Positions 45,674 through 60,854 of a DNA stretch of 64,000 nt are shown here, one piece after another. The stretch spans positions 155,941-219,940 of the forward strand of contig CAVRDC010000019.1 in NCBI GenBank assembly GCA_963719745.1. The letters run 5' to 3'. The stretch is from an uncultured Alphaproteobacteria bacterium. Its GTDB lineage: Bacteria; Pseudomonadota; Alphaproteobacteria; Rhizobiales; Xanthobacteraceae. A program made the position numbers and the translations under genes. The first letter of the stretch is position 1. The number at the start of each line of letters is the position of its first letter. The notes under the pieces were generated by a model, which worked only from the letters and a program-made list of their open reading frames with translations, was not told where the DNA came from and ran no database searches.

Positions 45674-47011
45674 GTGAAAGTGCTCGATCTGGTGGAAAAA
45701 GTCGAGGTTGAGCCTTCGGTTCGATACGGCTGGGGACAAAGCGAGATATTACCCCTTACGGGATTAAGGTTCTTTGCTGCGATTTTCGTTGTTTTGGGCC
45801 ATTCGGTCAATTCGCTTCTGACATTCAATCCGCCGGCCGAGAGATTGACGATGGTATTCTATACCCTCGTACCGCTTGGCATGACGCTATTTTTCGTACT
45901 GTCAGGATTTGTTATTCATTACAATTATTATGTATCGGTGCGAAAAGGAAAACAGGGCTCAGCAAAATTTTTTGTTGCCCGATTCGCGAGGCTTGTTCCA
46001 CTCTACGCGCTTCTCCTGTTCGCTGAACTCGGGATTTCATGGGCCCCCAGCGAGTTCCCATCGGCCTATTACTATTTCGGATTGGCTCAAAGCTGGGTCT
46101 ACATTCAGCTAGACGGCAAATCCCTGCTTAGTCACATGATCTATGCGCCTGTAACGTGGTCGATCAGCACCGAGTGGTTCTTCTATTGCCTTTATCCATT
46201 AGTTGCCACTTTAGTGTTTCGTAAGGGGGTCGTTACGCTCGCCGCCATTACGCTGTGCTACATGGGCGTTCTCTCGCTCGGGTATCTGTATCCAAATGCA
46301 ATCGACGATTTCGGCTTCCGCATGTGGGGGCCGACTGCCGTGGACCATAGCGACGGGAACACGCTCTTTTACGCGTGGGTTTTGAACTTTTCGCCCATAG
46401 GAAGGCTGCATGAGTTTTTCACCGGTGTTATTGCCGCGCATGTGTTTGTGAAACTCTCCAATCGCGACGCAACAACGCAATCCGAGTCGATCATCGGCGC
46501 TGCACTCCTCATCGGAGCGCTCGCGGCGCTGCTCGCGGTGCAGATCGCGCTACGTAGTCCGGCACACATCCCCTATCAATACATTGCAGCGGCGAGCACG
46601 TTCCTCGTGCCGCTTTCGATTGGAACGACGATCTTCAGTCTCGGCAGATACCCTTCAATACCCGCCAAACTTCTTTCAGTGGCCCCGCTGGTGGCCGCCG
46701 GTGACGCAAGCTACTCAATCTACCTGTTTCACCTACCGGCTCTTCAGATCGTCAGCTTCAAACAAACCATTCCATTGAATCGATTGTTTGAAGAAATCGC
46801 GGCATCGCGATACATCGTGTTTCTGACGCTGCTGATTTTGTTCTGCATCGGCATGTACCGGGTCTATGAAACCGACATGAGGTCATTCATCCGCATGCAT
46901 GTGGACGTAACAAAACCCGCAGTGGCGTATCTCGTGATTGTATTTTGCGTGGGAGTTCCGACCGCCACTGCGATTTACGGCTGGTGCGCGAGCTTTGGCC
47001 TGCTGAGATAA
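45674..47011 (+). CDS. Acyltransferase family 3 (O-acyltransferase, OafA/NolL-like), intact
   Basis: LTGLRFFAAIFVVLGH..LFFVLSGFVIHYNY..VTWSISTEWFFYCLYP..GDASYSIYLFHLP. The GTG start at 45674 is chosen because the upstream part of the 519-aa ORF is non-family Arg/Gly-rich text. Confidence 0.75.
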   Translation: MKVLDLVEKVEVEPSVRYGWGQSEILPLTGLRFFAAIFVVLGHSVNSLLTFNPPAERLTMVFYTLVPLGMTLFFVLSGFVIHYNYYVSVRKGKQGSAKFFVARFARLVPLYALLLFAELGISWAPSEFPSAYYYFGLAQSWVYIQLDGKSLLSHMIYAPVTWSISTEWFFYCLYPLVATLVFRKGVVTLAAITLCYMGVLSLGYLYPNAIDDFGFRMWGPTAVDHSDGNTLFYAWVLNFSPIGRLHEFFTGVIAAHVFVKLSNRDATTQSESIIGAALLIGALAALLAVQIALRSPAHIPYQYIAAASTFLVPLSIGTTIFSLGRYPSIPAKLLSVAPLVAAGDASYSIYLFHLPALQIVSFKQTIPLNRLFEEIAASRYIVFLTLLILFCIGMYRVYETDMRSFIRMHVDVTKPAVAYLVIVFCVGVPTATAIYGWCASFGLLR

Positions 47012-47019
47012 CGAAACGA

Positions 47020-47525
47020 CGGCTGTTCTGCCTTCCTTCGCGAGACGCTCTCGGATGGTCCTGTGTTCCTCCGCGGTCGGCGCGGGCCCCAATTTCCTCC
47101 AATAACGAGCGCGACCGCGTCGTGGTTTCTTGGCTGGGTTTGACGACGCCTCGCGGGAATTCGTAGTGCCATGATCGCGTGCCATAGCCGAGCATTACGA
47201 CGACGTCAGCCCCGAGATGCGGCAGGACCACTACACCGGCCGGCTCGATTAATCGGTTGTAGGGACCAAAAAGCGTCCGTCGCGCACCTTGACCGCCTCG
47301 CGCAGCCGACAACGTAGGGATCGCCGCCGAGGACGCCGACCCGCAAATCCTCATCGCCATGACGTGCTTGGCCCGCAGCGCGCCCGCATCAGACTTGGCG
47401 CGCTCCATCATCGGTTCATCGGATAGGATGCGAAACGCGCCTAGCCCGGAGCTGGAGAACAATTCGGAACGTGTCGATTCGAGTCGGCGGTATCGCAGCA
47501 GACAGTCGTGGTCATTCCACAGCAT
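47020..47525 (-). pseudogene. Possible NUDIX hydrolase remnant
   Basis: GVVVLPHLGADVVVMLGYGTRSWHYEFPRGVVKPSQETTTRSRSLLEEIGA resembles a Nudix fold and box (Gx5Ex7..LLEEIG). Downstream text degenerates across frames, and the ORF overlaps the convergent acyltransferase end. Confidence 0.3.
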
Positions 47526-48019
47526 CGTTATCGGTCCTACTTCTGTAAGCCAATCCCATTGTAGGCGGTGATCTTTTCACGGAAACCATCGCGGCAATCG
47601 GGTTCGGACGAGCCTCGGTCACGCTTCCAGTCTTGGCAGGAAACTCCCGCTGGAGGCCGATCAGCAAGCCCCGTGAATCAGCCGAGAGGCTGAACGATTA
47701 CAACCGCCGCCGGTTGCATCGATCGCAGCAGGTGTGCTAGAGGTAAGCGTTGCGGCGCACAAGGATTCTTGTGGCATGACGCTGGCGATTGCGGCGTCAC
47801 GGATGGGAAGGCTAAGGCCAATTCGCGGCCGAAGACTGGGTGTGTGGCCGCTCACGGCACACGGCAAAACAGTCGGATGCTCGTCTAGCTGGGCGGGTTC
47901 CTACGGTTCCGCAGCGGCAAAAACGCGACTCCGAAGCGGAACTTTTATTGCGGCTTGAATTCGGCCGGTTACGCTCGCATAAAGACTTCGCAGTGAGCGG
48001 ACCTGGAGGGGGCTAACAC

Positions 48020-49072
48020 GTGGCAGCGCCTGTGGGAATTGACCTGGTGACGGGCGGTGCTGGCTTTATCGGAAGCCATCTCGTGGACCGTTTGCTGGCG
48101 CAGGGGCGGTCGGTGCGCGCATTTGACAGCTTTGTGGTCGGCCGCCGCGCCAACCTCAAACAACACAGCGGCAACCCGCTCCTGGAAATCGTGGAAGGCG
48201 ACGTAGCCGACAGCGCCGCAGTGATGGCGGCGGCCGCGGGAGCGGAGCGGATTTTTCACCTCGCCGCCCGCGCCGACATCGTGCCATCGATCCAGCAACC
48301 CGAGGCCTATTTCCGCTCCAACGTGGATGGAACGTTTTGCGTGCTCGAGGCGGCGCGCCACCACGGCGTCAAACGGCTGGTCTATGTCGCTTCCTCGTCG
48401 TGTTACGGCATTCCCTCAAACTATCCAACTCCCGAAACCGCGCCCGCCGATACGCGGTACCCATACGCGCTCACCAAATATCTCGGCGAGCAGTTGGTGA
48501 TGCATTGGGCCCAGGTCTATCGTCTGCCGGCCGTCTCGGTGCGCTTCTTTAACGTCTATGGGCCGCGCGCGCGTACCAGCGGCACCTATGGCGCCGTGTT
48601 TGGGGTTTTTCTCGCCCAACTCCTGGCCGGCGAGCCGCTGACCATCGTCGGCGACGGCGAGCAGACCAGAGATTTCACCTTTGTGAGCGACGTGGTCGAC
48701 GCATTGATCGCGGTCGCCGAGAGTGACAAGATCGGCGAGACATACAACGTGGGAAGCGGGCATCCGGTCAGCGTCAACGAATTGGTGCGCCTTCTGGGAT
48801 CGCCGCCATCGGTGCAAATTCCGAAGCGTCCCGGAGAGCCGGATTGCACTTGGGCCGATATTTCCAAGATCCGCCGTAACATCGGATGGCAGCCGAAGGT
48901 AAGCTTTGCCGATGGTGTCAAGGTGATGCGGCAGAACATCGAGTATTGGCGCGACGCACCGGTCTGGACGGCGTCGCGCATCGCTGAAGCGACCAGTGAT
49001 TGGTTTCGGTTTCTTGAAACGGATCGTGGTGGTGTGAGGGCGCGGGGATGGACTCAGGCGTCGCAAAACTGA
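48020..49072 (+). CDS. NAD-dependent NDP-sugar epimerase/dehydratase (extended SDR)
   Basis: VTGGAGFIGSHLVDRL, ASSSCYG, YALTKYLGE (YxxxK), FFNVYGPR, GDGEQTRDFTFVSD. First gene of a co-directional, tightly packed operon. Confidence 0.8.
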   Translation: MAAPVGIDLVTGGAGFIGSHLVDRLLAQGRSVRAFDSFVVGRRANLKQHSGNPLLEIVEGDVADSAAVMAAAAGAERIFHLAARADIVPSIQQPEAYFRSNVDGTFCVLEAARHHGVKRLVYVASSSCYGIPSNYPTPETAPADTRYPYALTKYLGEQLVMHWAQVYRLPAVSVRFFNVYGPRARTSGTYGAVFGVFLAQLLAGEPLTIVGDGEQTRDFTFVSDVVDALIAVAESDKIGETYNVGSGHPVSVNELVRLLGSPPSVQIPKRPGEPDCTWADISKIRRNIGWQPKVSFADGVKVMRQNIEYWRDAPVWTASRIAEATSDWFRFLETDRGGVRARGWTQASQN

Positions 49073-50628
49073 TCCGTCAGCCGCAGGTCGGCCGACCGAG
49101 CAGTCCGCGTGATAAGGTCAGAACCCTGGCCGAGGTGGCGGCTGCATGCGAGCAGGCGAGGCGCGCTGGCCAGACCGTCGTTCAGGCGCATGGCACGTTC
49201 GATCTTCTGCATCTCGGGCATGTCCGCCACCTCGAGGCGGCCCGCAAGGTTGGCGATGTGCTGATCGTCACGGTCACGGCCGATCGCTTCGTCAACAAGG
49301 GGCCGGGCCGGCCGGTGTTCAACGCCGAGCTGCGCGCCGAGATGCTGGCGACGCTCGAATATGTCGATTGGGTGGCCATCAACGACGCCGCCGACGCGGT
49401 CAGCGCGATCGAGCGCATCCGGCCGTCGATCTACATCAAAGGGCAGGACTATCAGAATCCGCAGGGTGACATCACCGGCAAGATCTCGCTTGAGCGCGAC
49501 GCGGTCGAGGCTCATGGCGGACGGATTCATTTCACCGACGAGGTAACGTTCAGCTCCACCGAATTGATCAACCGCCACCTCAACGTCTTCGAGCCGCACA
49601 TCCGCGAGCATCTCGACACGGTGCGTCAGAATGGCGGATTGGACGAATTGTGTGGCCTGATCGATTCCGTCGCGGACTACCGCGTGCTCATCGTCGGCGA
49701 CGCCATTATCGACGAGTACCAGTATGTGCTGCCAATGCACAAGACGCCGAAGGAGAACATGATCGCGACGCGCTATCAGGATCGCGAACTGTTTGCCGGC
49801 GGCGTGTTCGCGGCGGCCAATCACGTGGCGTCGTTCTGCAAACAGGTCGACATTATTACCTGCCTCGGTGACTCCGACAGCCACGACGACCTGATCCGCC
49901 AGAGCCTCAAACCGAATGTGGGGCTCAAATCGTTCACGCGCTCCGGCGCCCCGACCACGCTCAAGCGCCGCTTCGTCGACCCCTCGTACATGCGCAAGCT
50001 GTTCGAGGTGTATTTCATGAACGACGAATCGCTGACGCCTGATGTTCAGGGCGCCGTTGACCGGGCGATCGCCGATGTGGCGGCGGACTATGATGTCGTC
50101 ATTGCTGCCGATTTCGGTCACGGCCTGATCGCTGCGTCATCGATTGACGCGCTGACTTCAAATTCGCGGTTCCTAGCCGTGAATACCCAAAGCAACAGCG
50201 CCAATCTCGGCTACAATCTCATCACCAAGTATGGCCGCGCCGATTACATCTGCATCGACGCTCCCGAAGCCCGTCTCGCAGTGAGCGATCGTATCTCCAA
50301 TGTGGGCGACATCGCGCGTCGGCTGGCCGAGGATCACATCGATTGTTCGAAGATTATCGTCACTCAGGGAAAGCACGGCTGCGTTACCTTTGAGAGCGGC
50401 GGCATCGTGCATACCATCCCGGCTTTCGCCAAGAATGTGGTGGACACGGTTGGCGCGGGCGACGCCTTCCTCGCGGTGAGCGCGCCGCTCGTGGCGGCTG
50501 GCGCCCCGATGAGCCACGTTGGGTTCATTGGCAATGTCGTAGGGGCGCTTAAGGTCGAAATCGTCGGTCATCGGCGTTCGATCGAGAAGGCGGCATTGAT
50601 CAAGGGCATCACCGGTCTTCTCAAATAG
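49048..50628 (+). CDS. Bifunctional cytidylyl/adenylyltransferase-like domain (N-terminal) + PfkB-family sugar kinase (C-terminal); HldE-like with inverted domain order
   Basis: HGTFDLLHLGHVRHLEAARKVGDVLIVTVTAD..VNKGPGRPV (HxGH nucleotidyltransferase), then a ribokinase-fold region ending DTVGAGDAF. 526 aa, uninterrupted. Confidence 0.75.
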   Translation: MDSGVAKLIRQPQVGRPSSPRDKVRTLAEVAAACEQARRAGQTVVQAHGTFDLLHLGHVRHLEAARKVGDVLIVTVTADRFVNKGPGRPVFNAELRAEMLATLEYVDWVAINDAADAVSAIERIRPSIYIKGQDYQNPQGDITGKISLERDAVEAHGGRIHFTDEVTFSSTELINRHLNVFEPHIREHLDTVRQNGGLDELCGLIDSVADYRVLIVGDAIIDEYQYVLPMHKTPKENMIATRYQDRELFAGGVFAAANHVASFCKQVDIITCLGDSDSHDDLIRQSLKPNVGLKSFTRSGAPTTLKRRFVDPSYMRKLFEVYFMNDESLTPDVQGAVDRAIADVAADYDVVIAADFGHGLIAASSIDALTSNSRFLAVNTQSNSANLGYNLITKYGRADYICIDAPEARLAVSDRISNVGDIARRLAEDHIDCSKIIVTQGKHGCVTFESGGIVHTIPAFAKNVVDTVGAGDAFLAVSAPLVAAGAPMSHVGFIGNVVGALKVEIVGHRRSIEKAALIKGITGLLK

Positions 50629-50651
50629 GCAGACTACAGGAGGCGAGACAC

Positions 50652-51245
50652 GTGCGCGAACAGTTGAATCGGTACTTTAGAACGTTGGCTGAGCTTCTGC
50701 ACGGTGCCGAGGTGACCGATCGCGCATCGAACGCGCTGCCGCTCGACGAAGGCTGCGAATGGGTGCGCAAGGCGGCCCACGAAACGCACGATTCCGGCAA
50801 CAAGATCATGTTCGTCGGCAACGGCGGCAGCGCCGGTATCTCGAGCCACCTCGCCATCGACTTTTCGAAGAATGGCGGTCTGCGCGCGCTCGCGTTCAAC
50901 GATCCGTCGGCGCTCACCTGCCTCGGTAACGACCTCGGGTACGATAATGTGTTCGCCAAGCAACTCGACTTCCACGCCCATCCTGGCGATCTTTTGATCG
51001 CGATTTCGAGCTCCGGCCGATCGCCGAACATCCTCGCCGCGGTCAGGACCGCGAGGACCCGCGACTGCAAAGTCGTAACGTTTTCCGGGTTCACAGCGGA
51101 GAATGAATTGCGGCGCACCGGTGATGTCAATTTTTTCATCCGCTCCCGTGAATACGGCTTTGTCGAAGTCGCGCACTTAGCGCTCTGCCACGCCGTTTTG
51201 GATATCGATATGGGCTGGGGACGGCAGGCCGCGGCCGCCGAGTAG
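50652..51245 (+). CDS. gmhA: SIS-domain sedoheptulose-7-phosphate isomerase-like protein (GmhA-like)
   Basis: KIMFVGNGGSAGISSHLAIDF..DLLIAISSSGRSPNIL..VVTFSG. Size (197 aa) and context fit. GTG start. Confidence 0.65.
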   Translation: MREQLNRYFRTLAELLHGAEVTDRASNALPLDEGCEWVRKAAHETHDSGNKIMFVGNGGSAGISSHLAIDFSKNGGLRALAFNDPSALTCLGNDLGYDNVFAKQLDFHAHPGDLLIAISSSGRSPNILAAVRTARTRDCKVVTFSGFTAENELRRTGDVNFFIRSREYGFVEVAHLALCHAVLDIDMGWGRQAAAAE

Positions 51246-51271
51246 AGCAGAAGAACGGATTGGAAGGAACG

Positions 51272-52270
51272 ATGGGCAAGCGATTTGAACGCGTCTTGGT
51301 CACCGGTGGCGCCGGCTATGTTGGTTCAAACTTGGTACCCAAGCTGCTCGACGCCGGCTACGAAGTCTCCGTCCTTGATCTTTACATTTATGGCGACGTT
51401 TTCGCCGACCTCAACGCCAAGGATAAACTCCGACAGATCAAAGGCGACCTGCGCAACCCCGATGATGTAAGCCGCGCTTTGTCCGGCTGCGATGCCGTCA
51501 TCCATCTTGCGTGCATTTCCAACGATCCGTCGTTCGACCTTAATCCCGATCTCGGCAGGTCGATCAATTTCGATTGCTTCCGGCCACTCGTCCGCGCGTC
51601 CAAGGACGCCGGCGTCAAACGCTTCATCTACGCCTCGTCATCGTCGGTGTACGGCATTAAGGACGAGATGGACGTCACAGAGGATCTGCCACTGGTTCCG
51701 CTTACCGACTATTCAAAATACAAGGCGATGTGCGAGGAAGTGCTGGAAGAAGAGCGCGAACCCGACTTTGTCGCCGTGACGGTGCGGCCGGCGACCGTTT
51801 GCGGCTACGCGCCGCGGCTGCGCCTTGACCTGACGGTGAACATTCTCACCAATCATGCCATTAACAACGGCCGCATCACCGTCTTTGGCGGCGATCAGTT
51901 GCGTCCAAACATTCACGTCGAGGACATGACCGATCTCTACTTGATGTTGCTCGATCAGCCGGACGAGGCGATCAATGGCAAGACTTGGAATGCCGGCTAT
52001 CACAATCTCAAAGTCCGTGCCATCGCTGATATGGTCCGCGATGAGGTTGGGCCCAAGGTCAACATCGTCGTGACCCCGACCGACGATCACCGGTCCTATC
52101 ACGTCTCGTCCGAGAAGATCCGGCGCGACATCGGATTTGTCGCCGAGCGCACGGTGAAGGATGCGATCGTCGATTTAAAAACCGCTTTTTTGGTCGGTAA
52201 AGTTCCGAATGCGATGACTGATGATCGTTATTACAATATCAAGCGGATGCAGGCGCTCAAACTGAGATGA
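51272..52270 (+). CDS. NAD-dependent epimerase/dehydratase (SDR)
   Basis: VLVTGGAGYVGSNLVPKLL, ASSSSVYG, YSKYKAMCE (YxxxK). ATG preceded by GGAAGGA. Confidence 0.75.
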   Translation: MGKRFERVLVTGGAGYVGSNLVPKLLDAGYEVSVLDLYIYGDVFADLNAKDKLRQIKGDLRNPDDVSRALSGCDAVIHLACISNDPSFDLNPDLGRSINFDCFRPLVRASKDAGVKRFIYASSSSVYGIKDEMDVTEDLPLVPLTDYSKYKAMCEEVLEEEREPDFVAVTVRPATVCGYAPRLRLDLTVNILTNHAINNGRITVFGGDQLRPNIHVEDMTDLYLMLLDQPDEAINGKTWNAGYHNLKVRAIADMVRDEVGPKVNIVVTPTDDHRSYHVSSEKIRRDIGFVAERTVKDAIVDLKTAFLVGKVPNAMTDDRYYNIKRMQALKLR

Positions 52271-55179
52271 ACAAGGTCGAAAGGCTGGCGCAAGAGGATG
52301 CGGTGCGGCCGATCTCATCCACGACCGCGCCCCGTCGACAGCCGCCGAAGCGGGTGACGCTACTATTGCCGGTTTGGGGTTACGGTTACCTCCGCCAATT
52401 CCTCACATACGGTCTACCGACGCTGCTAGCGCCGGGTAATGTGCCCGCGCTGGCAGCAGCGCTGCCGACCGAGTTCATCATCCTGGCTAGCGTCCAGGAT
52501 CAGGAGTACATCCGAGAACACTCAAATTTCCAACAGCTTGCCGCCGTTTGCAAGACCGAGATCCGGTCGATCGACCATCTGATCACCGACGGCAACTATT
52601 CCACCACGATCACGCTTGCCTATACCGAGGCAGTGCGCGCCGCCGGCGAGGCAATGGTCGATACCTGCTTCTTCTTCCTGGTGTCCGATTACATCATGGC
52701 AGACGGCTCTCTCGCCAACGCGCTCAAGCGGATGCAGCGGGGGGTAAGCGCAATTACCGTCGGCAATTTTCAGGTTGCAGAAGAAGATGCGCTGCCGTGG
52801 TTGGAAGCTAAGCTGGCAAATAGCAAATCCGGCCTCGCCATAGCGCCACGTGAAATGATGCGCTGGGCGCTCAACCATCTGCACCCGGCTACGCTTGCGA
52901 ATGTGGTCAATATTCCTTTCAGCCACAACACGCACACCAATCGCCTGTTCTGGCGCGTCGATGCCAGCACCATTCTCGGGCGCTTCTATCTCATGCACAT
53001 GCTGTGCGTGCGGCCCGAGACGACGGAATTCATCGTTGGCGCATCCTGCGATTATTCTTTCATTCCGGAAATGTGTCCGTCGGGAAACGTCGAAGCGATC
53101 CCCGACTCTGATGAATACCTAGTCATTGAATTGCAGCCGCTCAAACACGAGTTGGCGTTCCTGCGTCCAGGGCCCCTTACCCTCCGCCCTCTCGCGAAGA
53201 GCTTGAGCGAATGGACCACGCACACGCAACGCCAGAATGTCAAGCATTCGGTGGTGTTTCACGCCGGCGAGCTTCCAGCGCAATTGAGTAGCAAGGTCGC
53301 CGAGGCCGATGATTTCGTTGATCGCGTCTCGCTTCTCCTGAAGCGCAAGCCATTGCCCTATAGGGGTCATCCCTACTGGCGCGGCGCCATGGCTACGTTT
53401 TATGACGCTACCGGACGTAAGCTGAACGAAGACGAATGGCGTTACGCGCTGGGCCTGCCGGCCAGCGAGGATCGCGTCACGCAGTGGCTGCTGTGGCAAG
53501 CCAAATTTTATATCCTGGGCCGGCCTCCGCACGTGCTGCCTTGGCATCCCGCGTGGCCCGACTTCAAAGTCATGCTTGGCCAGCTAGAACGTTTCTTTAC
53601 GGATCCCAAAGTGCGTCTATTGCTGTTGTCGAATGAGACAACTGCCTTCAGTGTAGCACTCGCCGACAGCGGCGAGCGGGTGCAGCGGCTGCGCTGTGCA
53701 ACGTTCTTGCAAAGTCCCGCCGAGCGCTACGCGCCTCTGCACGGGAAATTCGACCTTTGCCTGCTCGAGCTTCACGAGCCCGACCTGCGGAATGGAAAGG
53801 AGCTCATGGACCGAATTGTGCCGCTGATGAAGAATGGCGGGCAGGTTATTGTTTCCGTACCGAACAGCCGCGTGATCGACAGAGCAGGCGAGTTTGGCTT
53901 CAGCATGGCATTCCTAAGTCCGCGGTTTGTGCGGTCTGGCGCCATTCCGACTGAGACTCACTATGTGCCGGCGAATATGGCGCGCAGAATAGCGCGCCGC
54001 GGAATGTTCAATTTACGGCGCCTCATGAGACGGACTCCTTGGATGAGCGCGCCCCTTGTGGTGATCGGGGGTGGAGTGCTGCTGGCGCTTTCGTTCGTAG
54101 GCAACGTGGATGCGTTTCGGGCGACGCGGGTGACGCGGCACACAAGTATGCGTGGTCATAAATCGAGTTTCATCCTGCGCTTAACGGTTGATGCGCCGGA
54201 GAGCAGTGACGCCTTAACCCTGATCAACCAAAGTGCGCAGCAAGAGAGGAGGCGGCGGGAGCTGTACGCCCTCGCGGATGAAAGGCCGCCGCTGGGAAAG
54301 GCTCCGGATGAAGCGCCCAAGCTCCCATATGACCGTTGTTTCGAACTGAAGGAGAAAATGGGCCTCGCGCGTCTCGGTATCGTAACCAATGCGCTATGGT
54401 TTAACGACCCGCGCCGCCTCGCAGCCGTGCTTGCTCGATACGGCTTCGTCGCCAACATGCTGAATGGCTGTCGGGATATCGGCGAGGTCGGTTGCGGCGA
54501 TGCCTTCGCGACGCGCGTAGTGTTGCAGGATGCGGCGCGCGTCACCGTCTATGAGTCTGATTTGAGGTTGGTCGATGACATCCGCCAACGCCGGGATGAG
54601 CGCTGGCCGCTTGAGGCGGAAGTCCACGATATCCTATTGGCGCCGCTGCCTCGTAAGCATCAAGGAGTGTTCAGCCTCGATCTGATTGAGCACGTTGCGC
54701 CCGAAGACGAACACGCATTCCTAACCAATCTGTGCGGATCGCTTGCCGACAAGGGTGTTCTCCTGCTGGGGATGCAGGCCCTGGACTCCAAGAAATCTTC
54801 GACGGCGGTATCGGGTTCCGGCAATCGCAGAAGCGGCAACGAGCTCAAGGCGCTCCTTGGAAATTATTTTGAAAACGTGTTCTTACTTTCCATGAGCGAC
54901 GAGGTTCTTCAGGCCGGCGAAGCGCCAACGGCCGACTATCTATTTGCCCTCTGCACAGCTCCAAAGTGGGAAATGGGGTCGATCCGACGCAGAGGGCGAG
55001 AGGCTCCTCGATTCCAGATTTGCGAGCTTACCGACGGCACTGGATTTTATGTGCAGGCGACGTATCCCAACAGCGAACCGCAAAGGGTTGGTGGCTTCAC
55101 GACTGTCGGCGATGCCGCACGCTGGATCGCCAGCGAGACGCTGGATTGGATTCGCACCGATCGCCCCACATCGCATTGA
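52267..55179 (+). CDS. 970-aa multidomain protein: unassigned N-terminal ~330-aa domain, degenerate methyltransferase-like middle region, one hydrophobic helix, C-terminal class I SAM methyltransferase, small C-terminal tail domain
   Basis: Uninterrupted, with start overlapping the upstream stop. N-terminus VTLLLPVWGYGYLRQFLTYGLPTLLAPGNVPA... Helix MSAPLVVIGGGVLLALSFVGNV. C-terminal methyltransferase IGEVGCGDAFATRVV..LDLIEHV, paralogous to 3277..4003. Tail FQICELTDGTGFYVQATYPNSEPQRVGGFTTVGDAARWI. Confidence 0.6.
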   Translation: MNKVERLAQEDAVRPISSTTAPRRQPPKRVTLLLPVWGYGYLRQFLTYGLPTLLAPGNVPALAAALPTEFIILASVQDQEYIREHSNFQQLAAVCKTEIRSIDHLITDGNYSTTITLAYTEAVRAAGEAMVDTCFFFLVSDYIMADGSLANALKRMQRGVSAITVGNFQVAEEDALPWLEAKLANSKSGLAIAPREMMRWALNHLHPATLANVVNIPFSHNTHTNRLFWRVDASTILGRFYLMHMLCVRPETTEFIVGASCDYSFIPEMCPSGNVEAIPDSDEYLVIELQPLKHELAFLRPGPLTLRPLAKSLSEWTTHTQRQNVKHSVVFHAGELPAQLSSKVAEADDFVDRVSLLLKRKPLPYRGHPYWRGAMATFYDATGRKLNEDEWRYALGLPASEDRVTQWLLWQAKFYILGRPPHVLPWHPAWPDFKVMLGQLERFFTDPKVRLLLLSNETTAFSVALADSGERVQRLRCATFLQSPAERYAPLHGKFDLCLLELHEPDLRNGKELMDRIVPLMKNGGQVIVSVPNSRVIDRAGEFGFSMAFLSPRFVRSGAIPTETHYVPANMARRIARRGMFNLRRLMRRTPWMSAPLVVIGGGVLLALSFVGNVDAFRATRVTRHTSMRGHKSSFILRLTVDAPESSDALTLINQSAQQERRRRELYALADERPPLGKAPDEAPKLPYDRCFELKEKMGLARLGIVTNALWFNDPRRLAAVLARYGFVANMLNGCRDIGEVGCGDAFATRVVLQDAARVTVYESDLRLVDDIRQRRDERWPLEAEVHDILLAPLPRKHQGVFSLDLIEHVAPEDEHAFLTNLCGSLADKGVLLLGMQALDSKKSSTAVSGSGNRRSGNELKALLGNYFENVFLLSMSDEVLQAGEAPTADYLFALCTAPKWEMGSIRRRGREAPRFQICELTDGTGFYVQATYPNSEPQRVGGFTTVGDAARWIASETLDWIRTDRPTSH

Positions 55180-55181
55180 CC

Positions 55182-55808
55182 ATGGCATTAGAACTGCGCA
55201 TCGGCATCGACTTCGACAACACCATTATCACCTACGACGAGGTGTTCTGCGCGGCGGCCAAGCGCGGCGGAATGATCGACGATGGGTTTGTCGGGCGGAA
55301 GCAAGCAGTACGCGACGCCATTCGTCTACAACCGGGTGGCGAGCTTGCGTGGCAGCGATTGCAGGGTCAGGTCTACAGCAAGGGAATTACCGGAGCTGGC
55401 ATGGTGCCAGGTGTCGAAGCTTTCTTGAGGCGCTGTCGGGTCGAGGGATGCATGGTTGCGATCGTCAGTCACAAGACGGAATTCGGCCATGACGATCCGG
55501 ATCGGGTAAATTTGCGCAAAGCGGCGCTCGACTGGATGACGAGCAAGGGCTTGTTCGACATCCATGCCGTGGCGCCGGAAAACGTCTACTTTGAAAGCAC
55601 GCGTGAGGAGAAAATCGGACGCATCGCGATGCTCGCCTTGACCCACTTCATCGACGACTTGGAGGAGGTGCTGACCGACCCCGGCTTCCCGGCGAATATC
55701 AAGCGCATTCTATTCGCTGGCGGAGAGCCTATGCCAGCGGCGCCTTATGTCGTCTGCCGAACCTGGCAAGATATCGAGCACCAGGTCTTTGGCGGAGCGA
55801 GCCATTGA
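55182..55808 (+). CDS. HAD-superfamily phosphatase
   Basis: IGIDFDNTI (DxDxT motif I), VAIVSHKT (motif II-like), FIDD (motif IV-like). ATG 3 nt after the upstream stop. Confidence 0.6.
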   Translation: MALELRIGIDFDNTIITYDEVFCAAAKRGGMIDDGFVGRKQAVRDAIRLQPGGELAWQRLQGQVYSKGITGAGMVPGVEAFLRRCRVEGCMVAIVSHKTEFGHDDPDRVNLRKAALDWMTSKGLFDIHAVAPENVYFESTREEKIGRIAMLALTHFIDDLEEVLTDPGFPANIKRILFAGGEPMPAAPYVVCRTWQDIEHQVFGGASH

Positions 55809-56830
55809 GCGCGCTCGACCAAGGCTTGATGCAGGCGACCGAAGTGGCGCGCGGACTCGTCGATGGCCCAGTTGAAGTGAGCCGTTTTGCAGGTGGCGGA
55901 CGCAATAGCCGCATTTGGCTAGTCCGAAGCGGCGAGCACGCGTTCGCGCTCAAGCAGTACCCGCCGCGCCGGAACGACCCGCGCGACCGGCTTTCGACAG
56001 AGGTCGCTGCGCTTCGGCTGATGGAACGTCATCGCGTCGAAAACGTTCCGCGCGTCATCGGCGTTGACGGCGAACGCGGCTATGCGCTTTTGAGCTGGCT
56101 TGATGGCCGCGACGTCGTCGAGGTGAGAGACGCCGACATTGACGCCGCGGTCGTATTTCTTGCCTCCATCCATCAGCTGCGAACGGCGCCTTGGGCGATC
56201 GAGCAGCCGCTCGCGGCCGAGGCCTGCTTGTGCGGCGATGAGATTGAACGCCAGATCAGGCAGCGTTTGACCGGGTTAATGGGCCTCGCTCGCGGAGAGG
56301 GAGAACTCTTTGATTTCCTTGAGGGTTCCTTTTCCGTCCATCTCGCCGAGGCCGGTCCGCGGGCACGTAAAAAGGCGGCGATGACCGGCCTTGATTTTGC
56401 TGCTGAACTCCCGCAGGAATGGCGGAGCTTGGTGCCATCCGACTTCGGCTTTCACAACAGCTTGCGCCGAAGCGATGGTTCGCTGGCGTTCGTCGACTTC
56501 GAATATTTTGGCTGGGACGATCCCGTGAAGCTGACCGCCGATATCCTGCTACATCCGGGCAGAACGCTTTTGCCGGCCCAGCGCACCGCATTCCGGAAGG
56601 CGGCATCCCGCCTTTACAGGGACGATTTTGGCTTTGCCTCCCGGTTGTCGGCCTATCTGCCGTTATTTGGTCTGCGCTGGGTCCTCATCCTGCTCAACGA
56701 GTTTATCCCCGAGCGCTGGCAGCGGCGTGTGCTTGCCGGTGACGGCGGGAGTTGGAGCGACGCCAAAACGCAGCAACTCGCTCGGGCACGCGAGTTCCTG
56801 GCGTCGTTGGCTGAGAAGGTGGAGGATTAG
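55805..56830 (+). CDS. Aminoglycoside/choline-kinase-like (APH family) phosphotransferase
   Basis: Brenner/APH motif region PSDFGFHNSLRRSDGSLAFVDFEYFGWDDP. TTG start overlaps the upstream stop. Confidence 0.6.
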   Translation: MSALDQGLMQATEVARGLVDGPVEVSRFAGGGRNSRIWLVRSGEHAFALKQYPPRRNDPRDRLSTEVAALRLMERHRVENVPRVIGVDGERGYALLSWLDGRDVVEVRDADIDAAVVFLASIHQLRTAPWAIEQPLAAEACLCGDEIERQIRQRLTGLMGLARGEGELFDFLEGSFSVHLAEAGPRARKKAAMTGLDFAAELPQEWRSLVPSDFGFHNSLRRSDGSLAFVDFEYFGWDDPVKLTADILLHPGRTLLPAQRTAFRKAASRLYRDDFGFASRLSAYLPLFGLRWVLILLNEFIPERWQRRVLAGDGGSWSDAKTQQLARAREFLASLAEKVED

Positions 56831-56833
56831 CGT

Positions 56834-57679
56834 ATGGCGTTGGTCTCGGCAGCGCAAGCGCTCGACCTGGTAACGCCGCCGCTTGATGAGCGCTCGAAAT
56901 ATTTGCGCCGGCTTGTGGTGCGCACGCTGCAGGGCGGCGAGCGCGGTCACGTCGGGTCCTCAATGTCGCTCATCGAGATCATGCGCGTCCTGTATGACGA
57001 CGTGTTGCGCTTCCGTCCACAGGAGCCGAAATGGTCGGGGCGCGACCGCATGATCCTGAGCAAGGGGCATGGCTGCATAGCACAATATGTCATGCTCGCC
57101 GAAAAGGGCTTCATTCCCTACGAGACGCTCGACACCTTCTGCCGGCGCGATTCCATTCTCGGCGGTCACCCGGAGGCTTCGAAGATTCCCGGCGTCGAGG
57201 CTTCGACCGGGGCGCTCGGGCACGGCCTTTCCTATGGCGTTGGGATGGCGTTGGCGGCGCGCATCGAGAGGCGCGATACCCGCATCATCGTGGTGATGGG
57301 TGACGGTGAAATCAATGAAGGCTCGGTGTGGGAAGCAGCGCTCTGCGCCGGCAAGCACAGGCTTGCGAACCTCACCGCGGTCATTGACTACAACAAGATC
57401 CAGTCCGCCGGCCCGACTCGGGAAATCCAGGACTTGGAGCCGCTGGTCGACAAGTGGCGTGCGTTCAACCTCGCCACCGTCGAAGTCGACGGTCACAACG
57501 TCGAGGCGCTTCGCGAGGCCTTCCGGAGTCTGCCGCTCGCTAGCGATCGGCCCAGCGCCATCATCTGTCACACCGTCAAGGGCAAAGGCATCGCATTCGC
57601 GGAGAATGACGCTAACTGGCACCACAAATCGAAGATCGCCAACGACGTGGTGACCAAGCTCTATGCCGCCCTGGAGTAA
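56834..57679 (+). CDS. Transketolase, N-terminal (TPP-binding) subunit
   Basis: GHVGSSMSLIEIM..ILSKGHG..GGHPE..GVEASTGALGHGLSYGVGMA..VVMGDGEINEGSVWEA..VIDYNKIQ. Confidence 0.9.
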   Translation: MALVSAAQALDLVTPPLDERSKYLRRLVVRTLQGGERGHVGSSMSLIEIMRVLYDDVLRFRPQEPKWSGRDRMILSKGHGCIAQYVMLAEKGFIPYETLDTFCRRDSILGGHPEASKIPGVEASTGALGHGLSYGVGMALAARIERRDTRIIVVMGDGEINEGSVWEAALCAGKHRLANLTAVIDYNKIQSAGPTREIQDLEPLVDKWRAFNLATVEVDGHNVEALREAFRSLPLASDRPSAIICHTVKGKGIAFAENDANWHHKSKIANDVVTKLYAALE

Positions 57680-57682
57680 AGC

Positions 57683-58633
57683 ATGCGCGCTACTTGCCTC
57701 AATATGGTCCATGATCTCGCCAAGCGGGACAAACGCGTATTGTTCATTGGCTCCGATCTGAGCCCTGGCTTGCTTGCCGAGATGCGCAAGGAAATGCCTG
57801 AGCGCTGGTACATGGAGGGCATTACCGAAGCGAACGTTATTGGCATGGCCGCCGGCTTCGCGATGGAGGGATATGTTCCGTACGTCAATACGATCGCGAC
57901 ATTCATCACCCGCCGTTGTTACGAGCAGGTCGCCGTCGATCTCTGTCTGCACGAATTGCCGGTGCGGCTGATCGGCAATGGCGGCGGTCTGGTCTATGCG
58001 CCGCTCGGCCCGACCCATCTCGCCATCGAGGATATCGCCATCATGCGAGCCCTGCCGAACATGGCGGTGACGGCAGTATGCGATGCCAAGGAAATGGTGC
58101 GGCTGATGAACGGCACCCTCGATTGGCCGCATCCGATCTACATCCGCCTTGCCAAGGGCGGCGATCCGATTGTCAGCCGCGAGGAGAACGGCTTCACCTT
58201 CGGCAAGGCGATCCCGATGCGGCGTGCCCGCTCACGGCGCTCGATCGTGTTGATGGCGACCGGCGTGATGACCACCAATAGTTTGGCGGCGGCCGACTTG
58301 CTGGCGAAAGAGGGCCATGATGTTTCTGTGGTGCACTTCCACACCATCAAGCCGCTTGACGAAGAGGCCGTACTGGAATTTTCGCGCGACGCCGAGCTGG
58401 TCGTGACGGTGGAGGAGGGGACGCGGATTGGAGGGTTTGGTAGCGCGGTCACGGATGTCCTTGTCGAGAATCTCGGCACCGCATTGCCGCCCATAATGCG
58501 CATCGGTCTTCCCGACGCCTTCCCGCACAAGTATGGGTTGCAGGAAGAGCTTTTCGAGGTCTACGGGCTAGCGCCCGTTCAGATCGCGGGACGAGTGGGC
58601 AAATCATTGGCGGCAAAGGAAAAAGTGGCCTAA
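57683..58633 (+). CDS. Transketolase, C-terminal (pyrimidine-binding) subunit
   Basis: ERWYMEGITEANVIGMAAGFAMEGYVPYVNTIATF..GGLVYAPLGPTHLAIEDIAIMRALPNM..IRLAKG..VVHFHTIKPLD. Confidence 0.9.
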   Translation: MRATCLNMVHDLAKRDKRVLFIGSDLSPGLLAEMRKEMPERWYMEGITEANVIGMAAGFAMEGYVPYVNTIATFITRRCYEQVAVDLCLHELPVRLIGNGGGLVYAPLGPTHLAIEDIAIMRALPNMAVTAVCDAKEMVRLMNGTLDWPHPIYIRLAKGGDPIVSREENGFTFGKAIPMRRARSRRSIVLMATGVMTTNSLAAADLLAKEGHDVSVVHFHTIKPLDEEAVLEFSRDAELVVTVEEGTRIGGFGSAVTDVLVENLGTALPPIMRIGLPDAFPHKYGLQEELFEVYGLAPVQIAGRVGKSLAAKEKVA

Positions 58634-58788
58634 TCGCGGATTATTCAAGGGGCCGCAGAAGCCGCTGGTCCCCGCAGTCCGCCCACCCTCGCGCACGGGG
58701 CCGGCTGGATGCCATCGAAGCGCTAACCGCGATGGCGGCAAGCGAGCCCCGATACGTGACGCCGCATGTGATTCCCGTGTTCGCGGGA

Positions 58789-59715
58789 ATGAGCCGTGGA
58801 TATTTGTTCGAACGCGGCGCGGCGAAGAGGTGGTTGGTGTTCCTGATCATCGGTGGTGACTTTGAAATCGGCGGTGCCACGTATCGCGCGATAAAAGCGA
58901 GAGGCGGTGAGGTTGTGGCAACGACTTGCCGTCCGGAGCACACTGGATCCGATCGGCCACTCCTCGACCTCGCCGTGCCGTTTGAATCCTGGGAGCTGCC
59001 GCAGGGAACGACCGCCGTGTGTATATGCGCCGCTATCGCCCGTCTTGCGGCTTGCGCAGTAGACCCTGAGGGTACCTCGCGCATCAATGTCACTCAGACG
59101 CTGGCGCTGATCGATAAACTGCTGGCACGCGGCATCTATGTGCTGTTTCTTTCGTCCAACCAGGTGTTCGACGGACGCGCACCGGACGTGCCGGCTGATG
59201 CGCCGTATTCGCCGGTGAGCGAATACGGCCGGCAGAAGGCGCGCACGGAAGCGGTGCTGCGTGAACGCATAACGCGCGGAGCGCCCGCTGGCATTCTGCG
59301 TCTCGCCAAAGTCATCCCCGAGAAAATGCCGCTGATCGACGGCTGGATCGCGGATTTATCGAACGGCAAGGCGATCAGCGCCTTTCACGACATGACGCTC
59401 GCGCCCACTCCGACCGACCTGGTCTCTGGTGCGATCGGCTCACTGCTCAACGATCGCGCCAGCGGTGTCTTTCAGCTCACCGGGCCGCGCGATGTCGCCT
59501 ATGCGGACGTTGCGCGTTTTGTGGCCTCTTACCTCGGCGCGGAGCATTCATTGGTGTCAGAGACGAGCGCACGCGATGCCGGCTTGCCCGAAGGCGCAAC
59601 GCCGCTCAATACGACGCTCGATTCAGCCTTGTTGGCCGATCGTTACGGGTCTCGCGTGCCCGATGTCTGGGAGGTCATCGAGAAGGTCATTTCGGCTAGC
59701 GGCCGGCAAAAATAA
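58789..59715 (+). CDS. RmlD-like NDP-4-keto-sugar reductase / sugar nucleotide-binding SDR
   Basis: LIIGGDFEIGGA Rossmann-like N-terminus, PVSEYGRQKARTE (YxxxK), LRLAKV. Last gene of the plus-strand operon. Start uncertain (58732 or 58789). Confidence 0.55.
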   Translation: MSRGYLFERGAAKRWLVFLIIGGDFEIGGATYRAIKARGGEVVATTCRPEHTGSDRPLLDLAVPFESWELPQGTTAVCICAAIARLAACAVDPEGTSRINVTQTLALIDKLLARGIYVLFLSSNQVFDGRAPDVPADAPYSPVSEYGRQKARTEAVLRERITRGAPAGILRLAKVIPEKMPLIDGWIADLSNGKAISAFHDMTLAPTPTDLVSGAIGSLLNDRASGVFQLTGPRDVAYADVARFVASYLGAEHSLVSETSARDAGLPEGATPLNTTLDSALLADRYGSRVPDVWEVIEKVISASGRQK

Positions 59716-59834: not shown

Positions 59835-60854
59835 TCAATACGGCTCCGGCGGTTGCAGGAGCTGCAGCGGCTCTTCGCCGCGCCAGATTAGCCATGGTTC
59901 GATCTCGAAGACCACAAACTGACCGTTCAATCGCGCCGGCTCGGGAAAAGAGATGGAGAGCTGATCCATATCGGGCGTAACCTGCACGGTTGTCTCCGCC
60001 AATGCTTCGGCAAGCTTGGCGCCGAAGCCGCGCAAGACAACCTGAACACCAAGCACGCCCGGCCGGCTAGGCGGCACGAATTTGAGGCGCACGCCGTCGA
60101 CACGGCTCATTTGGCAGCGGGTGGTGCCGAAATTGCTGGGGCGCTCATCCACCAGACGGTTAGCTGGTGCTTGCAACACCATGAAATCAGTATTGACGAT
60201 CGTGGTGCGGTTCCGGTCAAAGGCTTTGTCCGGATTATAGTCGCGGACGGAGGAGCCGAGTTCGCGCCAGCCCGGATTGGCGGCAAGGAAATCGCGTGCC
60301 GCGAAGAAGGGACCGGCCTGGGCTATATTGTCGACGACAATAAAGCCGCCCGGTGTGATCGCACGCGCGCCGCATCCGATGTCGAACAGCGCGAATTCAT
60401 AGTCGTGATTGCCGTCGACGAATACGAGGCTTGGCCGGATGCCCTTATTCCGTTGCTCCATGAAGAAGGACATGGAATCCATTTCATAAAGTCGCGCGCG
60501 TCCCCGGAGCGCCGGCGGCCAGCGCTTAAACACTAGCTTGATATTCTCGCCGCAGAACGGATCGACGGCATGCACTTTGCCGTGGCCGTTGGCATGCAAC
60601 GCGCGACAAATCGCTTCGGTCGTGCCGGCTCTGAATGCGCCGATCTCAAACACATGCTCGGGGCGAAGGTTGCGGATGAGGCAATAGAGCAAGGCCTGCG
60701 ATTGCGGCGAGACCAGCGAACGCGTCGTCACCGGATTGTCGGCGAAGAATGCCGTCGCGGCGTCGAACTCCGGCGACGTTATGATAGCGGCGATCGTGTC
60801 GGCGGCATCAATATCGATTTGCGGGGTCGCAACTGGGCCGATCGGCTTGACCAA
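59835..60854 (-). CDS. Class I methyltransferase (O-methyltransferase family-3-like) with an extra C-terminal domain; intact paralog of 16843..17938
   Basis: HVFEIGAFRAGTTEAICRAL..VHAVDPF..LVFVDGNHDYEFALFD..GGFIVVDN. 339 aa, uninterrupted. Confidence 0.7.
   Translation of the reverse strand: MVKPIGPVATPQIDIDAADTIAAIITSPEFDAATAFFADNPVTTRSLVSPQSQALLYCLIRNLRPEHVFEIGAFRAGTTEAICRALHANGHGKVHAVDPFCGENIKLVFKRWPPALRGRARLYEMDSMSFFMEQRNKGIRPSLVFVDGNHDYEFALFDIGCGARAITPGGFIVVDNIAQAGPFFAARDFLAANPGWRELGSSVRDYNPDKAFDRNRTTIVNTDFMVLQAPANRLVDERPSNFGTTRCQMSRVDGVRLKFVPPSRPGVLGVQVVLRGFGAKLAEALAETTVQVTPDMDQLSISFPEPARLNGQFVVFEIEPWLIWRGEEPLQLLQPPEPY

Follow-up and report, generated by a model that had tools for sequence, protein, structure and literature searches.

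A conserved surface-glycan gene cassette with a non-canonical split transketolase, predicted to build an unusual activated sugar

The stretch of DNA analysed here (the window) comprises 64,000 nucleotides (nt) of contig CAVRDC010000019.1 (assembly GCA_963719745.1, positions 155,941 to 219,940) from an uncultured alphaproteobacterium of the Xanthobacteraceae. At positions 48020-59715 it carries a ten-gene operon which, together with neighbouring genes, forms a cassette whose most likely function is to make an unusual activated sugar for surface glycans by way of an atypical transketolase. In the interpretation that we favour, to which we give a probability of roughly 40%, a cassette of 12-13 genes would make an unusual nucleoside diphosphate (NDP)-sugar destined for O-antigen or exopolysaccharide, and the transketolase would catalyse an integral step in construction of the carbon skeleton, by analogy with biosynthesis of the lincomycin octose.

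The operon was delineated from the list of open reading frames (ORFs), and its domains were assigned with Pfam and NCBIfam models, the equivalog cutoffs given below being those of NCBIfam. Its ten genes (g1 to g10) are all intact and co-directional, as originally predicted, and encode the following proteins.

48020-49072, + strand: g1, extended short-chain dehydrogenase/reductase (SDR), NDP-sugar 4-epimerase-like
49048-50628, + strand: g2, fusion of an N-terminal nucleotidyltransferase with a C-terminal PfkB sugar kinase
50652-51245, + strand: g3, divergent GmhA-like SIS ketose-phosphate/aldose-phosphate isomerase
51260-52270, + strand: g4, extended SDR, epimerase-like
52267-55179, + strand: g5, multidomain accessory protein of 970 amino acids with a C-terminal class I methyltransferase domain
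55182-55808, + strand: g6, HAD-superfamily phosphatase of 208 amino acids, undescribed subfamily
55805-56830, + strand: g7, small-molecule (sugar or alcohol) kinase of the APH/choline-kinase fold
56834-57679, + strand: g8, N-terminal (PP-domain) subunit of a split transketolase
57683-58633, + strand: g9, C-terminal (Pyr and C domain) subunit of the split transketolase
58732-59715, + strand: g10, RmlD-like NDP-ketosugar reductase

The junctions between successive genes measure -25, +23, +14, -4, +2, -4, +3, +3 and +98 nt. The overlapping or near-abutting arrangement described in the original prediction is therefore present at all but one of them, with extremes of 25 nt of overlap and 23 nt of spacing, the exception being the 98 nt that precede g10. 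The domain assignments made earlier also proved sound, that of g6 to the HAD superfamily being by motifs only; every family match in the operon falls below its equivalog cutoff. Two start sites deserve comment. The mechanically called ORF of g6 begins at 54966, and comparison with 17 orthologues identifies the ATG at 55182 as the shared start. In g10, conservation is lacking over the first ~35 codons, and its true start may therefore lie ~57 nt downstream, near 58789. The ~1 kb upstream of g1 (47012-48019) contains no convincing gene, only one low-complexity ORF on the minus strand, and a scan for promoters and terminators gave counts no higher than expected from shuffled sequence, with no promoter-like site above chance upstream of g1.

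That the transketolase is the unusual part of this operon, as had been proposed, is borne out by its substrate pocket. The N-terminal subunit g8 matches Transketolase_N in Pfam (167 bits) and the split transketolase 6yak_A in the Protein Data Bank (PDB; 248 bits), and 21 orthologues share its GH (residue 38), KGH (79), GGHPE (110) and WHH (263) motifs and the GDG...N motif (156-187) that binds Mg and thiamine diphosphate (ThDP). The C-terminal subunit g9 comprises Transket_pyr and Transketolase_C domains (Pfam), with 6yaj as its structural match (168 bits). In transketolases Glu411 activates the cofactor, and His26, His66, His100 and His261 bind the donor (E. coli TktA numbering). Equivalents of all these residues, together with the ThDP/Mg motif, are kept in g8 and g9 across 21-26 orthologues. 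Binding of the substrate phosphate and of the 2-hydroxyl of the acceptor is the role of His461, Asp469 and Arg520 in canonical enzymes such as those of E. coli and yeast. Alignment of g9 with 6yaj and representative canonical transketolases showed that it carries Gly, Leu and Lys, respectively, at these three positions, and that 24 of 26 orthologues share all of these replacements; the equivalent of Arg358 is kept. At the level of motifs, the canonical 'THaG..vGEDG.sHQ' is replaced by 'GNGGGLVYAPLGPTH' and 'RLgR' ('RLgRsg') by 'RLAK' ('RLAKGG').

The non-canonical pocket recurs in most of the 150 nearest cluster representatives (clustered at 50% identity), only a handful of which have the canonical residues. 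No solved structure falls within this large family, and we know of no characterised member. As a canonical transketolase (EC 2.2.1.1), g8 and g9 are a poor fit: the cofactor and donor residues agree with it, whereas the substrate-pocket residues do not, and the scores against NF004559 (260.5 bits for the N-terminal and 174.7 bits for the C-terminal subunit, 435 bits summed) are below the cutoff of 488. Judged by these residues, g8 and g9 appear transketolase-like on the donor side with a non-canonical substrate pocket.

The cassette is widespread. A genome scan, restricted to one genome per species, returned 38 loci, mostly from uncultured soil Xanthobacteraceae, Pseudolabrys and Hyphomicrobiaceae and including the cultured Methylocapsa sp. 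S129. When all window proteins were compared with these loci by tblastn, gene order and full-length coverage recurred in at least 25 of the 38. A metagenome search by the transketolase signature, whose matches are mainly close relatives, gave 31 loci of more than 8 kb, and most of these have the same gene order. Since order and coverage recur across both genome and metagenome loci, the arrangement of the operon is not due to chance. Altogether the cassette is present in ~50 soil alphaproteobacterial loci and in Methylocapsa, and beyond these in marine Rhodospirillaceae, in Leptospira weilii, on a plasmid of Solidesulfovibrio, and in Acidobacteria, Chloroflexi and Aminicenantes. The more distant members were found with a profile built from diverse transketolase C-terminal subunits, which detected proteins of 51-66% identity in other phyla, followed by inspection of gene context and reciprocal BLAST. 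Cross-phylum identity to the window proteins is 57-61% for g1, 55-65% for g4, ~60% for the transketolase subunits, 42-47% for g6 and 36-38% for g7, and among the neighbouring genes described below reaches 73% for a methyltransferase and 54-62% for an alcohol dehydrogenase. The gene order g6-type HAD protein, APH kinase, N- and C-terminal transketolase subunits, accompanied by this methyltransferase and usually by the alcohol dehydrogenase, is found again alongside g1, g2 and g4 in Alphaproteobacteria, marine Rhodospirillaceae, Leptospira, Acidobacteria and Chloroflexi. A synteny search, one of the checks that had been proposed with the original prediction, has thus found conserved gene order, and across phyla.

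Several of these loci (numbered with the prefix L) are informative individually. In Leptospira weilii (L119) the order is SDR, SIS_2, SDR, NTP_transferase, nucleotidyltransferase/PfkB, SDR, HAD-APH fusion, the N- and C-terminal transketolase subunits and the methyltransferase; the fusion, at 7563-9179 of that locus, is a 538 amino acid protein in which a g6-type HAD domain lies N-terminal to a g7-type APH kinase. Additional genes there encode the RmlA/HddC-type NTP_transferase, a DAO oxidoreductase and a NUDIX protein. A related operon on a marine Rhodospirillaceae/Magnetovibrio contig (L121) is headed by a TAL_FSA transaldolase/aldolase gene (1647-2372), and has a GFO/IDH/MocA oxidoreductase in place of the zinc-dependent alcohol dehydrogenase beside a 220 amino acid methyltransferase. 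Bryobacteraceae (L123) encode, in order, a GmhB-type HAD, a g6-type HAD, APH kinase, both transketolase subunits, methyltransferase, alcohol dehydrogenase and an RmlD-like SDR. Within the segment 6853-8141 of this locus the GmhB-type HAD (PF13242) directly follows nucleotidyltransferase/PfkB and the g6-type HAD precedes the APH kinase; the two HAD proteins may have different jobs. The same module was also seen in Dehalococcoidales (L124) and Aminicenantes (L125). Plasmid pDCAR1 of Solidesulfovibrio carbinolicus (NZ_CP026539.1; L126 and L127) carries a reduced form of the cassette. Its HAD, APH, transketolase and methyltransferase genes stand within a pseudaminic-acid-type locus (pseB, pseC, pseF and a NeuB-like gene), and genes for nucleotidyltransferase/PfkB and SIS are close by; the transketolase N-terminal subunit (L126, 15100-15891) is missing from the gene table of the plasmid. 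Another transketolase pair on pDCAR1, more distant in sequence, adjoins genes for FabG, a methyltransferase and an ATP-grasp ligase. One distant locus (L029) has g2, the g6-type HAD, the methyltransferase, the alcohol dehydrogenase, a GMD-like dehydratase and an ABC-2 exporter, and has no transketolase, APH or SIS gene.

Megablast of the 11.7-kb operon against plasmids gave no match. The original prediction took the pathway to be undescribed, and we found neither a paper nor an annotation that assigns a product to a homologous operon, source annotations going no further than 'rfaE bifunctional protein', 'transketolase' or 'hypothetical protein'. Nothing relevant was found in the literature on transketolase in gmhA/heptose or O-antigen clusters or in Leptospira rfb, or on split transketolase and polysaccharide.

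The conserved unit is larger than first reported. Three genes follow the operon in the window, convergent to it.

59835-60854, - strand: accessory methyltransferase of 339 amino acids (Methyltransf_24, PF13578, 51 bits; TylF-like class)
61057-62106, - strand: zinc-dependent alcohol dehydrogenase of the medium-chain dehydrogenase/reductase family (ADH_N and ADH_zinc_N)
62116-62781, - strand: class I S-adenosylmethionine-dependent methyltransferase of 221 amino acids (Methyltransf_31/25/11)

The alcohol dehydrogenase and the 221 amino acid methyltransferase are 75-93% identical (75-89% for the dehydrogenase) to counterparts beside the cluster in many loci, and in L098, L099 and L102 they directly follow the transketolase genes on the same strand. 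The methyltransferase is the best conserved partner of the cassette: its identity is 46% in L121 and 65-73% in Leptospira, Acidobacteria, Chloroflexi, Aminicenantes and Solidesulfovibrio. In all of these loci it has the same orientation as the transketolase genes, and it comes directly after them in Acidobacteria, Chloroflexi, Aminicenantes and Solidesulfovibrio. The alcohol dehydrogenase directly follows the transketolase-methyltransferase unit, at 54-62% identity, in Acidobacteria, Chloroflexi and Aminicenantes; its nearest relatives are the classical class I-III and the NDMA (N,N-dimethyl-4-nitrosoaniline)-dependent alcohol dehydrogenases, and its likeness to primary-alcohol dehydrogenases is greater than to polyol-phosphate ones. 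We count both genes as part of a 12-13-gene cassette. The Methyltransf_24 gene between them and the operon is present in only some loci (39-65% identity), and therefore probably represents a lineage-specific tailoring step.

Three operon members resemble enzymes of heptose activation. The fusion protein g2 contains CTP_transf_like (PF01467, residues 48-174) followed by PfkB (PF00294, residues 213-513), which is the reverse of the domain order in HldE, and the reversed order is kept in all related loci. Its scores of 161.9 bits against the HldE model NF008454 (cutoff 521), 98.7 bits against rfaE_dom_I (TIGR02198, cutoff 345) and 111.5 bits against rfaE_dom_II (TIGR02199, cutoff 181.5) and its domain order, with the kinase N-terminal and the nucleotidyltransferase C-terminal in HldE, set it apart from standard HldE proteins. 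Its nearest structures are HldC (5x9q, 64.6 bits) for the nucleotidyltransferase domain and HldA (4e84, 53.1 bits) for the kinase domain; the former domain matches an ethanolamine-phosphate cytidylyltransferase about equally well (63.4 bits). An exact-sequence look-up of g2 found no existing record, and hundreds of relatives of 80-93% identity occur in soil metagenomes, one of them labelled Bradyrhizobium sp. The isomerase g3 belongs to SIS_2 (Pfam) and its best match is GmhA, with ~37% identity to the Burkholderia pseudomallei enzyme; it was not accepted as an equivalog, scoring 90.4 bits against the gmhA model TIGR00441 (cutoff 209.45). It retains the SxSGxSxN phosphate loop and the equivalents of His64 and His183 (B. 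pseudomallei numbering), and has Asp at the position of Glu68 and Val at that of Gln175. The Glu68 to Asp change and a hydrophobic residue at position 175 recur in the SIS proteins that Leptospira, Bryobacteraceae and Solidesulfovibrio encode within their cassettes, such that a Glu-to-Asp change at the catalytic/metal site is common to the cassette SIS proteins of four phyla. In some related loci g3 is missing or relocated. All four HAD motifs of g6 (DFDNT, SHKT, K144 and DD158-159) are invariant in an alignment of 18 sequences, and neither sequence nor profile searches gave a match in Pfam, NCBIfam or the PDB; despite motifs I-IV a GmhB-type assignment was rejected, there being no match to PF13242 or to the TIGR GmhB model. 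The complete activation set of the original prediction is therefore present as regards its isomerase, PfkB kinase, HAD protein and cytidylyltransferase-type nucleotidyltransferase, whose nearest relatives are GmhA, HldA and HldC, but with scores below the cutoffs.

The second kinase, g7, had been described as not needed for the canonical route; it is in fact a conserved core member of the cassette, fused to the HAD protein in Leptospira. It matches Pfam APH with 50.4 bits (cutoff 23.2), and its motifs SDFGFHN and VDFEYFGWDDP include the Brenner motif S-D213-FGFH-N218 and the choline-kinase-like V-D231-FEY, both invariant in 25 homologues. Orthologues of 36-38% identity adjoin the transketolase genes in other phyla. 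No significant PDB match was obtained for g7 by sequence or profile search. An AlphaFold model built from a shallow alignment was poor (pLDDT 61, <50 in the catalytic loop), and its fold matches at a TM score of ~0.4 (YtaA, fructosamine-3-kinase, MTR kinase, ethanolamine kinase, LicA and NahK) would be consistent with a general small-molecule-kinase fold and nothing narrower. The least conserved member of the operon is g5, with 35-67% identity, truncated in many loci and absent from the operon position in L020, L023, L032, L034 and L049. Its Pfam matches are Methyltransf_25/11 only, with Methyltransf_25 at residues 740-830, and residues ~1-340 form a separate domain without a family match. Three paralogues of this N-terminal domain lie beside a glycosyltransferase gene in pDCAR1, and g5 probably functions in glycan handling or sugar transfer.

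The two SDRs do not support the 6-deoxyheptose product that had been suggested. In g1 (Pfam Epimerase, 206 bits) the active-site strings are ASSSCYG and YALTK, with no Asp/Glu, and in g4 (Epimerase, 147 bits) they are ASSSSVYG and YSKYK. The best PDB match of g1 is the UDP-glucose 4-epimerase 7ys8 (207 bits), and its top structures are UDP-hexose 4-epimerases. The acid/base motif of 4,6-dehydratases is TDE in RmlB and S/T-x-E in GMD. Because both g1 and g4 lack the Asp-Glu of RmlB and the Ser-Glu of GMD, the 6-deoxy prediction is unsupported, and 4,6-dehydratase assignments for the two proteins were rejected in favour of epimerase-type SDRs. The reductase g10 scores 69.6 bits against RmlD_sub_bind (Pfam cutoff 27) and 66.2 bits against TIGR01214 (cutoff 224), with motifs SSNQVFDG and YGRQK; its orthologues are 50-71% identical in most alphaproteobacterial loci and 37% in Chloroflexi.

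From these observations of gene content, conservation, linkage and active-site composition, and with every reaction assigned from family membership and gene association, the following route can be proposed. The zinc-dependent alcohol dehydrogenase (another oxidoreductase elsewhere) and the 221 amino acid methyltransferase would prepare or tailor an aldehyde acceptor that is non-phosphorylated and/or 2-substituted; g8 and g9 would take a C2 (glycolaldehyde) unit off a ketol donor and transfer it to this acceptor, giving a non-standard ketose. This ketose would be phosphorylated by g7 and converted from ketose-phosphate to aldose-phosphate by g3, or by a housekeeping GmhA; the PfkB domain of g2 would then phosphorylate C1, g6 would remove the distal phosphate, and the cytidylyltransferase-type domain of g2 would form the NDP-sugar. 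Stereochemistry and redox state would be set by g1, g4 and g10, and the product, expected to be a methylated heptose-like or higher-carbon sugar, would be used by g5 and neighbouring transferases. The transketolase genes sit among enzymes acting at the sugar-phosphate level, and g2 and the g6-type HAD co-occur even in the transketolase-less cluster L029. We prefer this route because it uses each conserved enzyme once and gives a reason for both the second kinase and its fusion to the HAD protein; the transaldolase of L121 also fits it. On the C2 transfer that the original prediction offered as one alternative, the evidence does point toward one or other of its outcomes, a higher-carbon or a branched sugar.

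A number of observations sit uneasily with this route. L099 and L102 have the transketolase genes without the APH kinase, and L121 and L124 have no SIS gene within 10 kb, so that phosphorylation of the ketose and its isomerisation are either not universal or supplied in trans. The retained Arg358 and the Lys at the Arg520 position mean that the substrate may still be phosphorylated, and since Bryobacteraceae have both a GmhB-type and a g6-type HAD, g6 may not be the distal phosphatase. The order of the alcohol dehydrogenase and methyltransferase steps is a guess. Finally, an RmlD-like reductase implies an NDP-keto-sugar, which the favoured route does not generate and which is better explained if the sugar is branched after its activation.

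Such late branching or extension is the main rival of the favoured route, and we think it unlikely. Here g3, g2 and g6 would make an ordinary NDP-heptose from sedoheptulose-7-phosphate, and the transketolase would then add a hydroxyacetyl (C2) group to a carbonyl of the nucleotide sugar. Before that step g1 or g4 would release a keto intermediate, or the alcohol dehydrogenase would make a terminal aldehyde; afterwards the RmlD-like reductase or the alcohol dehydrogenase would reduce the new ketone and the methyltransferase would act, giving a C-branched or chain-extended C9 sugar. Loss of the residues that bind phosphate and the 2-hydroxyl would make room for a bulky NDP-sugar, and the succession of transketolase, methyltransferase, alcohol dehydrogenase and, in some cases, RmlD-like genes in several phyla suggests that the enzymes encoded after the transketolase tailor its product. 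The absence of the APH kinase from L099 and L102 is in keeping with this, and the combination of two epimerase-type SDRs with an RmlD-like reductase and no dehydratase means that the keto sugar needs another origin. The same role has been proposed for split-gene transketolases in miharamycin and amipurimycin biosynthesis (PMC12247030), and higher sugars with a C4 branch or a cyclised form, for example bradyrhizose and the sugar of R. palustris (PMC9912281, PMC4743980), are made by bacteria related to the host, although we claim no link to them. However, no transketolase has been demonstrated to act on a ketone or a nucleotide sugar, the role in Streptomyces being only proposed (PMC12247030); the conserved APH kinase and HAD fusion would be left without a role; and the Solidesulfovibrio cassette has the transketolase but no orthologues of g1, g4 or the alcohol dehydrogenase.

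The preferred route, in which the transketolase acts before activation, must also be set against two further schemes. In one, an ordinary pentose-phosphate transketolase would merely boost sedoheptulose-7-phosphate for a conventional, possibly methylated, heptose. The intact cofactor and donor residues, a catalytically active split transketolase as best PDB match, the requirement of GmhA-, HldE- and HAD-type enzymes for this substrate, and the chance that the Arg358 equivalent with Lys at position 520 might still bind phosphate all agree with such a supply role. Yet the His461 and Asp469 equivalents are lost in 24 of 26 orthologues, the ~60% identity preserved between phyla and the strict linkage with genes for the APH kinase, HAD protein and methyltransferase are unexpected for a dispensable booster, and the second kinase again has no role. 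The heptose-type cluster L029, lacking the transketolase, lacks the APH kinase too, so that the two look coupled. Because of the pocket changes, the cross-phylum conservation and this co-inheritance with the APH kinase, HAD protein and methyltransferase, the suggestion in the original prediction that the enzyme could simply supply sedoheptulose-7-phosphate now appears improbable. In the other scheme, for which we see even less chance, the HAD, APH, transketolase, methyltransferase and oxidoreductase genes would make not a sugar backbone but a small substituent of two to four carbons (C2-C4), either a hydroxy-acid, a polyol or a phospho-alcohol. Such a substituent might be a methylated unit of glyceryl or glycolyl type, activated as a CDP-alcohol by the cytidylyltransferase-type domain or otherwise attached to a glycan sugar. 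The choline/ethanolamine-kinase-like motifs of g7, the matches of the g2 nucleotidyltransferase domain to ethanolamine-phosphate and glycerol-3-phosphate cytidylyltransferases as well as to HldC, the likeness of the alcohol dehydrogenase to primary-alcohol enzymes, and the location of the pDCAR1 module in a pseudaminic-acid locus, with a second transketolase pair beside an ATP-grasp ligase, lend themselves to this idea. Against it, most lineages link the module to two enzymes that act on sugar phosphates, the PfkB kinase and the SIS isomerase; the NDP-sugar SDRs g1 and g4 are conserved together with it; and no CDP-alcohol phosphotransferase was seen.

The destination of the product is indicated by the surroundings of the cassette, which sits in glycan loci in all lineages examined. 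Related loci carry ABC-2 transporters, glycosyltransferases and C-methyltransferases. In three of them a small DUF6016 protein is encoded beside sugar C-methyltransferases (Methyltransf_14), at 11019-11549 in L027, 16823-17356 in L119 and 6215-6760 in L125. Judged by its gene content, the whole window is a surface-glycan island, with the following genes upstream of the operon (Pfam unless stated).

4155-5309, - strand: DegT aminotransferase
5423-6544, + strand: family 2 glycosyltransferase (GT2)
13419-14357, - strand: radical SAM protein
23475-24482, - strand: YdjC protein
33727-34782, - strand: Polysacc_synt_2 dehydratase-like protein
35112-37448, + strand: YfhO-like protein
38335-39852, + strand: IS481-family transposase (rve/LZ_Tnp_IS481 domains)
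39929-41131, - strand: GT2 glycosyltransferase
41561-42553, - strand: LPG_synthase_TM protein
45452-47011, + strand: AT3 acyltransferase

Several long upstream ORFs have no Pfam match, for example that at 42975-45290 (771 amino acids), which has a 64% identical counterpart beside the cluster in L034. The IS481 transposase between the YfhO-like and GT2 genes suggests that the island is mosaic or mobile.

The breadth of the cassette and the direct testability of its key chemistry give it above-average interest. Should the transketolase prove to construct or branch the skeleton of the sugar, the cassette would specify an undescribed rare-sugar route in abundant soil Alphaproteobacteria, Leptospira, Acidobacteria and Chloroflexi, give a function to the large group of proteins annotated as 'transketolase family protein' that lack canonical substrate residues, provide a new type of ThDP carboligase for biocatalysis, and represent a testable component of surface antigens, including those of a Leptospira lipopolysaccharide-type locus whose sugars are poorly known. 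The boldest form of the proposal, that g8 and g9 form a carbon-carbon bond directly on an NDP-sugar carbonyl (keto or aldehyde) to give a C2-branched or chain-extended surface-glycan sugar, we regard as doubtful; if true, this would be the first demonstrated transketolase of its kind, in a cross-phylum family that includes a Leptospira O-antigen locus. If the outcome is the conservative one, with a reversed-HldE route leading to a methylated heptose, hundreds of metagenomic loci would still gain an annotation.

Comparison with known systems places the cassette among nucleotide-sugar pathways. The route to ADP-D-glycero-beta-D-manno-heptose (GmhA, HldE or HldA with HldC, and GmhB) uses the same four enzyme types; the cassette differs in its reversed fusion, scores far below the cutoffs, altered isomerase residues and non-GmhB HAD protein, and adds a transketolase, second kinase, methyltransferase and alcohol dehydrogenase that are absent from the canonical route. 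The 6-deoxyheptose routes (DmhA/DmhB, WcbK/WcbJ) are similar in passing from an NDP-heptose to SDR tailoring that includes an RmlD-like reductase, but g1 and g4 are without the dehydratase residues of GMD and RmlB, and a GMD-like enzyme was found only in the distant, transketolase-less L029. The closest structure to g8 and g9 is the split transketolase of Carboxydothermus hydrogenoformans (6yak, 6yaj), which has the same two-gene architecture and cofactor motifs; it keeps THaG...GEDG..HQ and RLgR where g9 has GNGGG...APLGPTH and RLAK.

In lincomycin biosynthesis the octose is built by the transaldolase LmbR and then processed by the GmhA-like isomerase LmbN, the kinase LmbP, the phosphatase LmbK and the nucleotidyltransferase LmbO to give GDP-octose. 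There too a carbon-carbon bond transferase is coupled to a heptose-type isomerase, kinase, phosphatase and nucleotidyltransferase, a likeness of pathway logic, and the related operon of L121 has a TAL_FSA gene as well. The cassette, by contrast, has a transketolase (C2) and not a transaldolase (C3), PfkB and APH kinases instead of a GHMP kinase, and a nucleotidyltransferase of the cytidylyltransferase fold instead of a GDP-type NTP_transferase, and belongs to a surface glycan rather than an antibiotic. In bacteria related to the host, bradyrhizose is attributed to an operon of photosynthetic Bradyrhizobium that has 11 genes, the first of them annotated as 'dTDP-glucose 4,6-dehydratase' (PMC4743980), and R. 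palustris has a C4-branched sugar (PMC9912281); a 'transketolase cluster' is also on record for USDA110 (blr2167-2170; PMC8125078). No named Bradyrhizobium species is among our 38 genome matches and no bradyrhizose link is claimed. For miharamycin and amipurimycin, split-gene transketolases have been proposed, never demonstrated, to carry out hydroxyacetyl branching; 13 such clusters have been predicted, all in Streptomycetes, and no transketolase has been demonstrated to accept a ketone (PMC12247030). The resemblance to our cassette, drawn from descriptions of those systems, lies in a split transketolase within a sugar-tailoring cluster and a suspected C2 transfer to a sugar carbonyl, whereas the cassette occurs in Gram-negative bacteria and other phyla, in glycan loci, and with fixed kinase, HAD, methyltransferase and alcohol dehydrogenase partners. 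What appears to be new here is thus a nucleotide-sugar pathway of known type combined with a non-canonical transketolase module.

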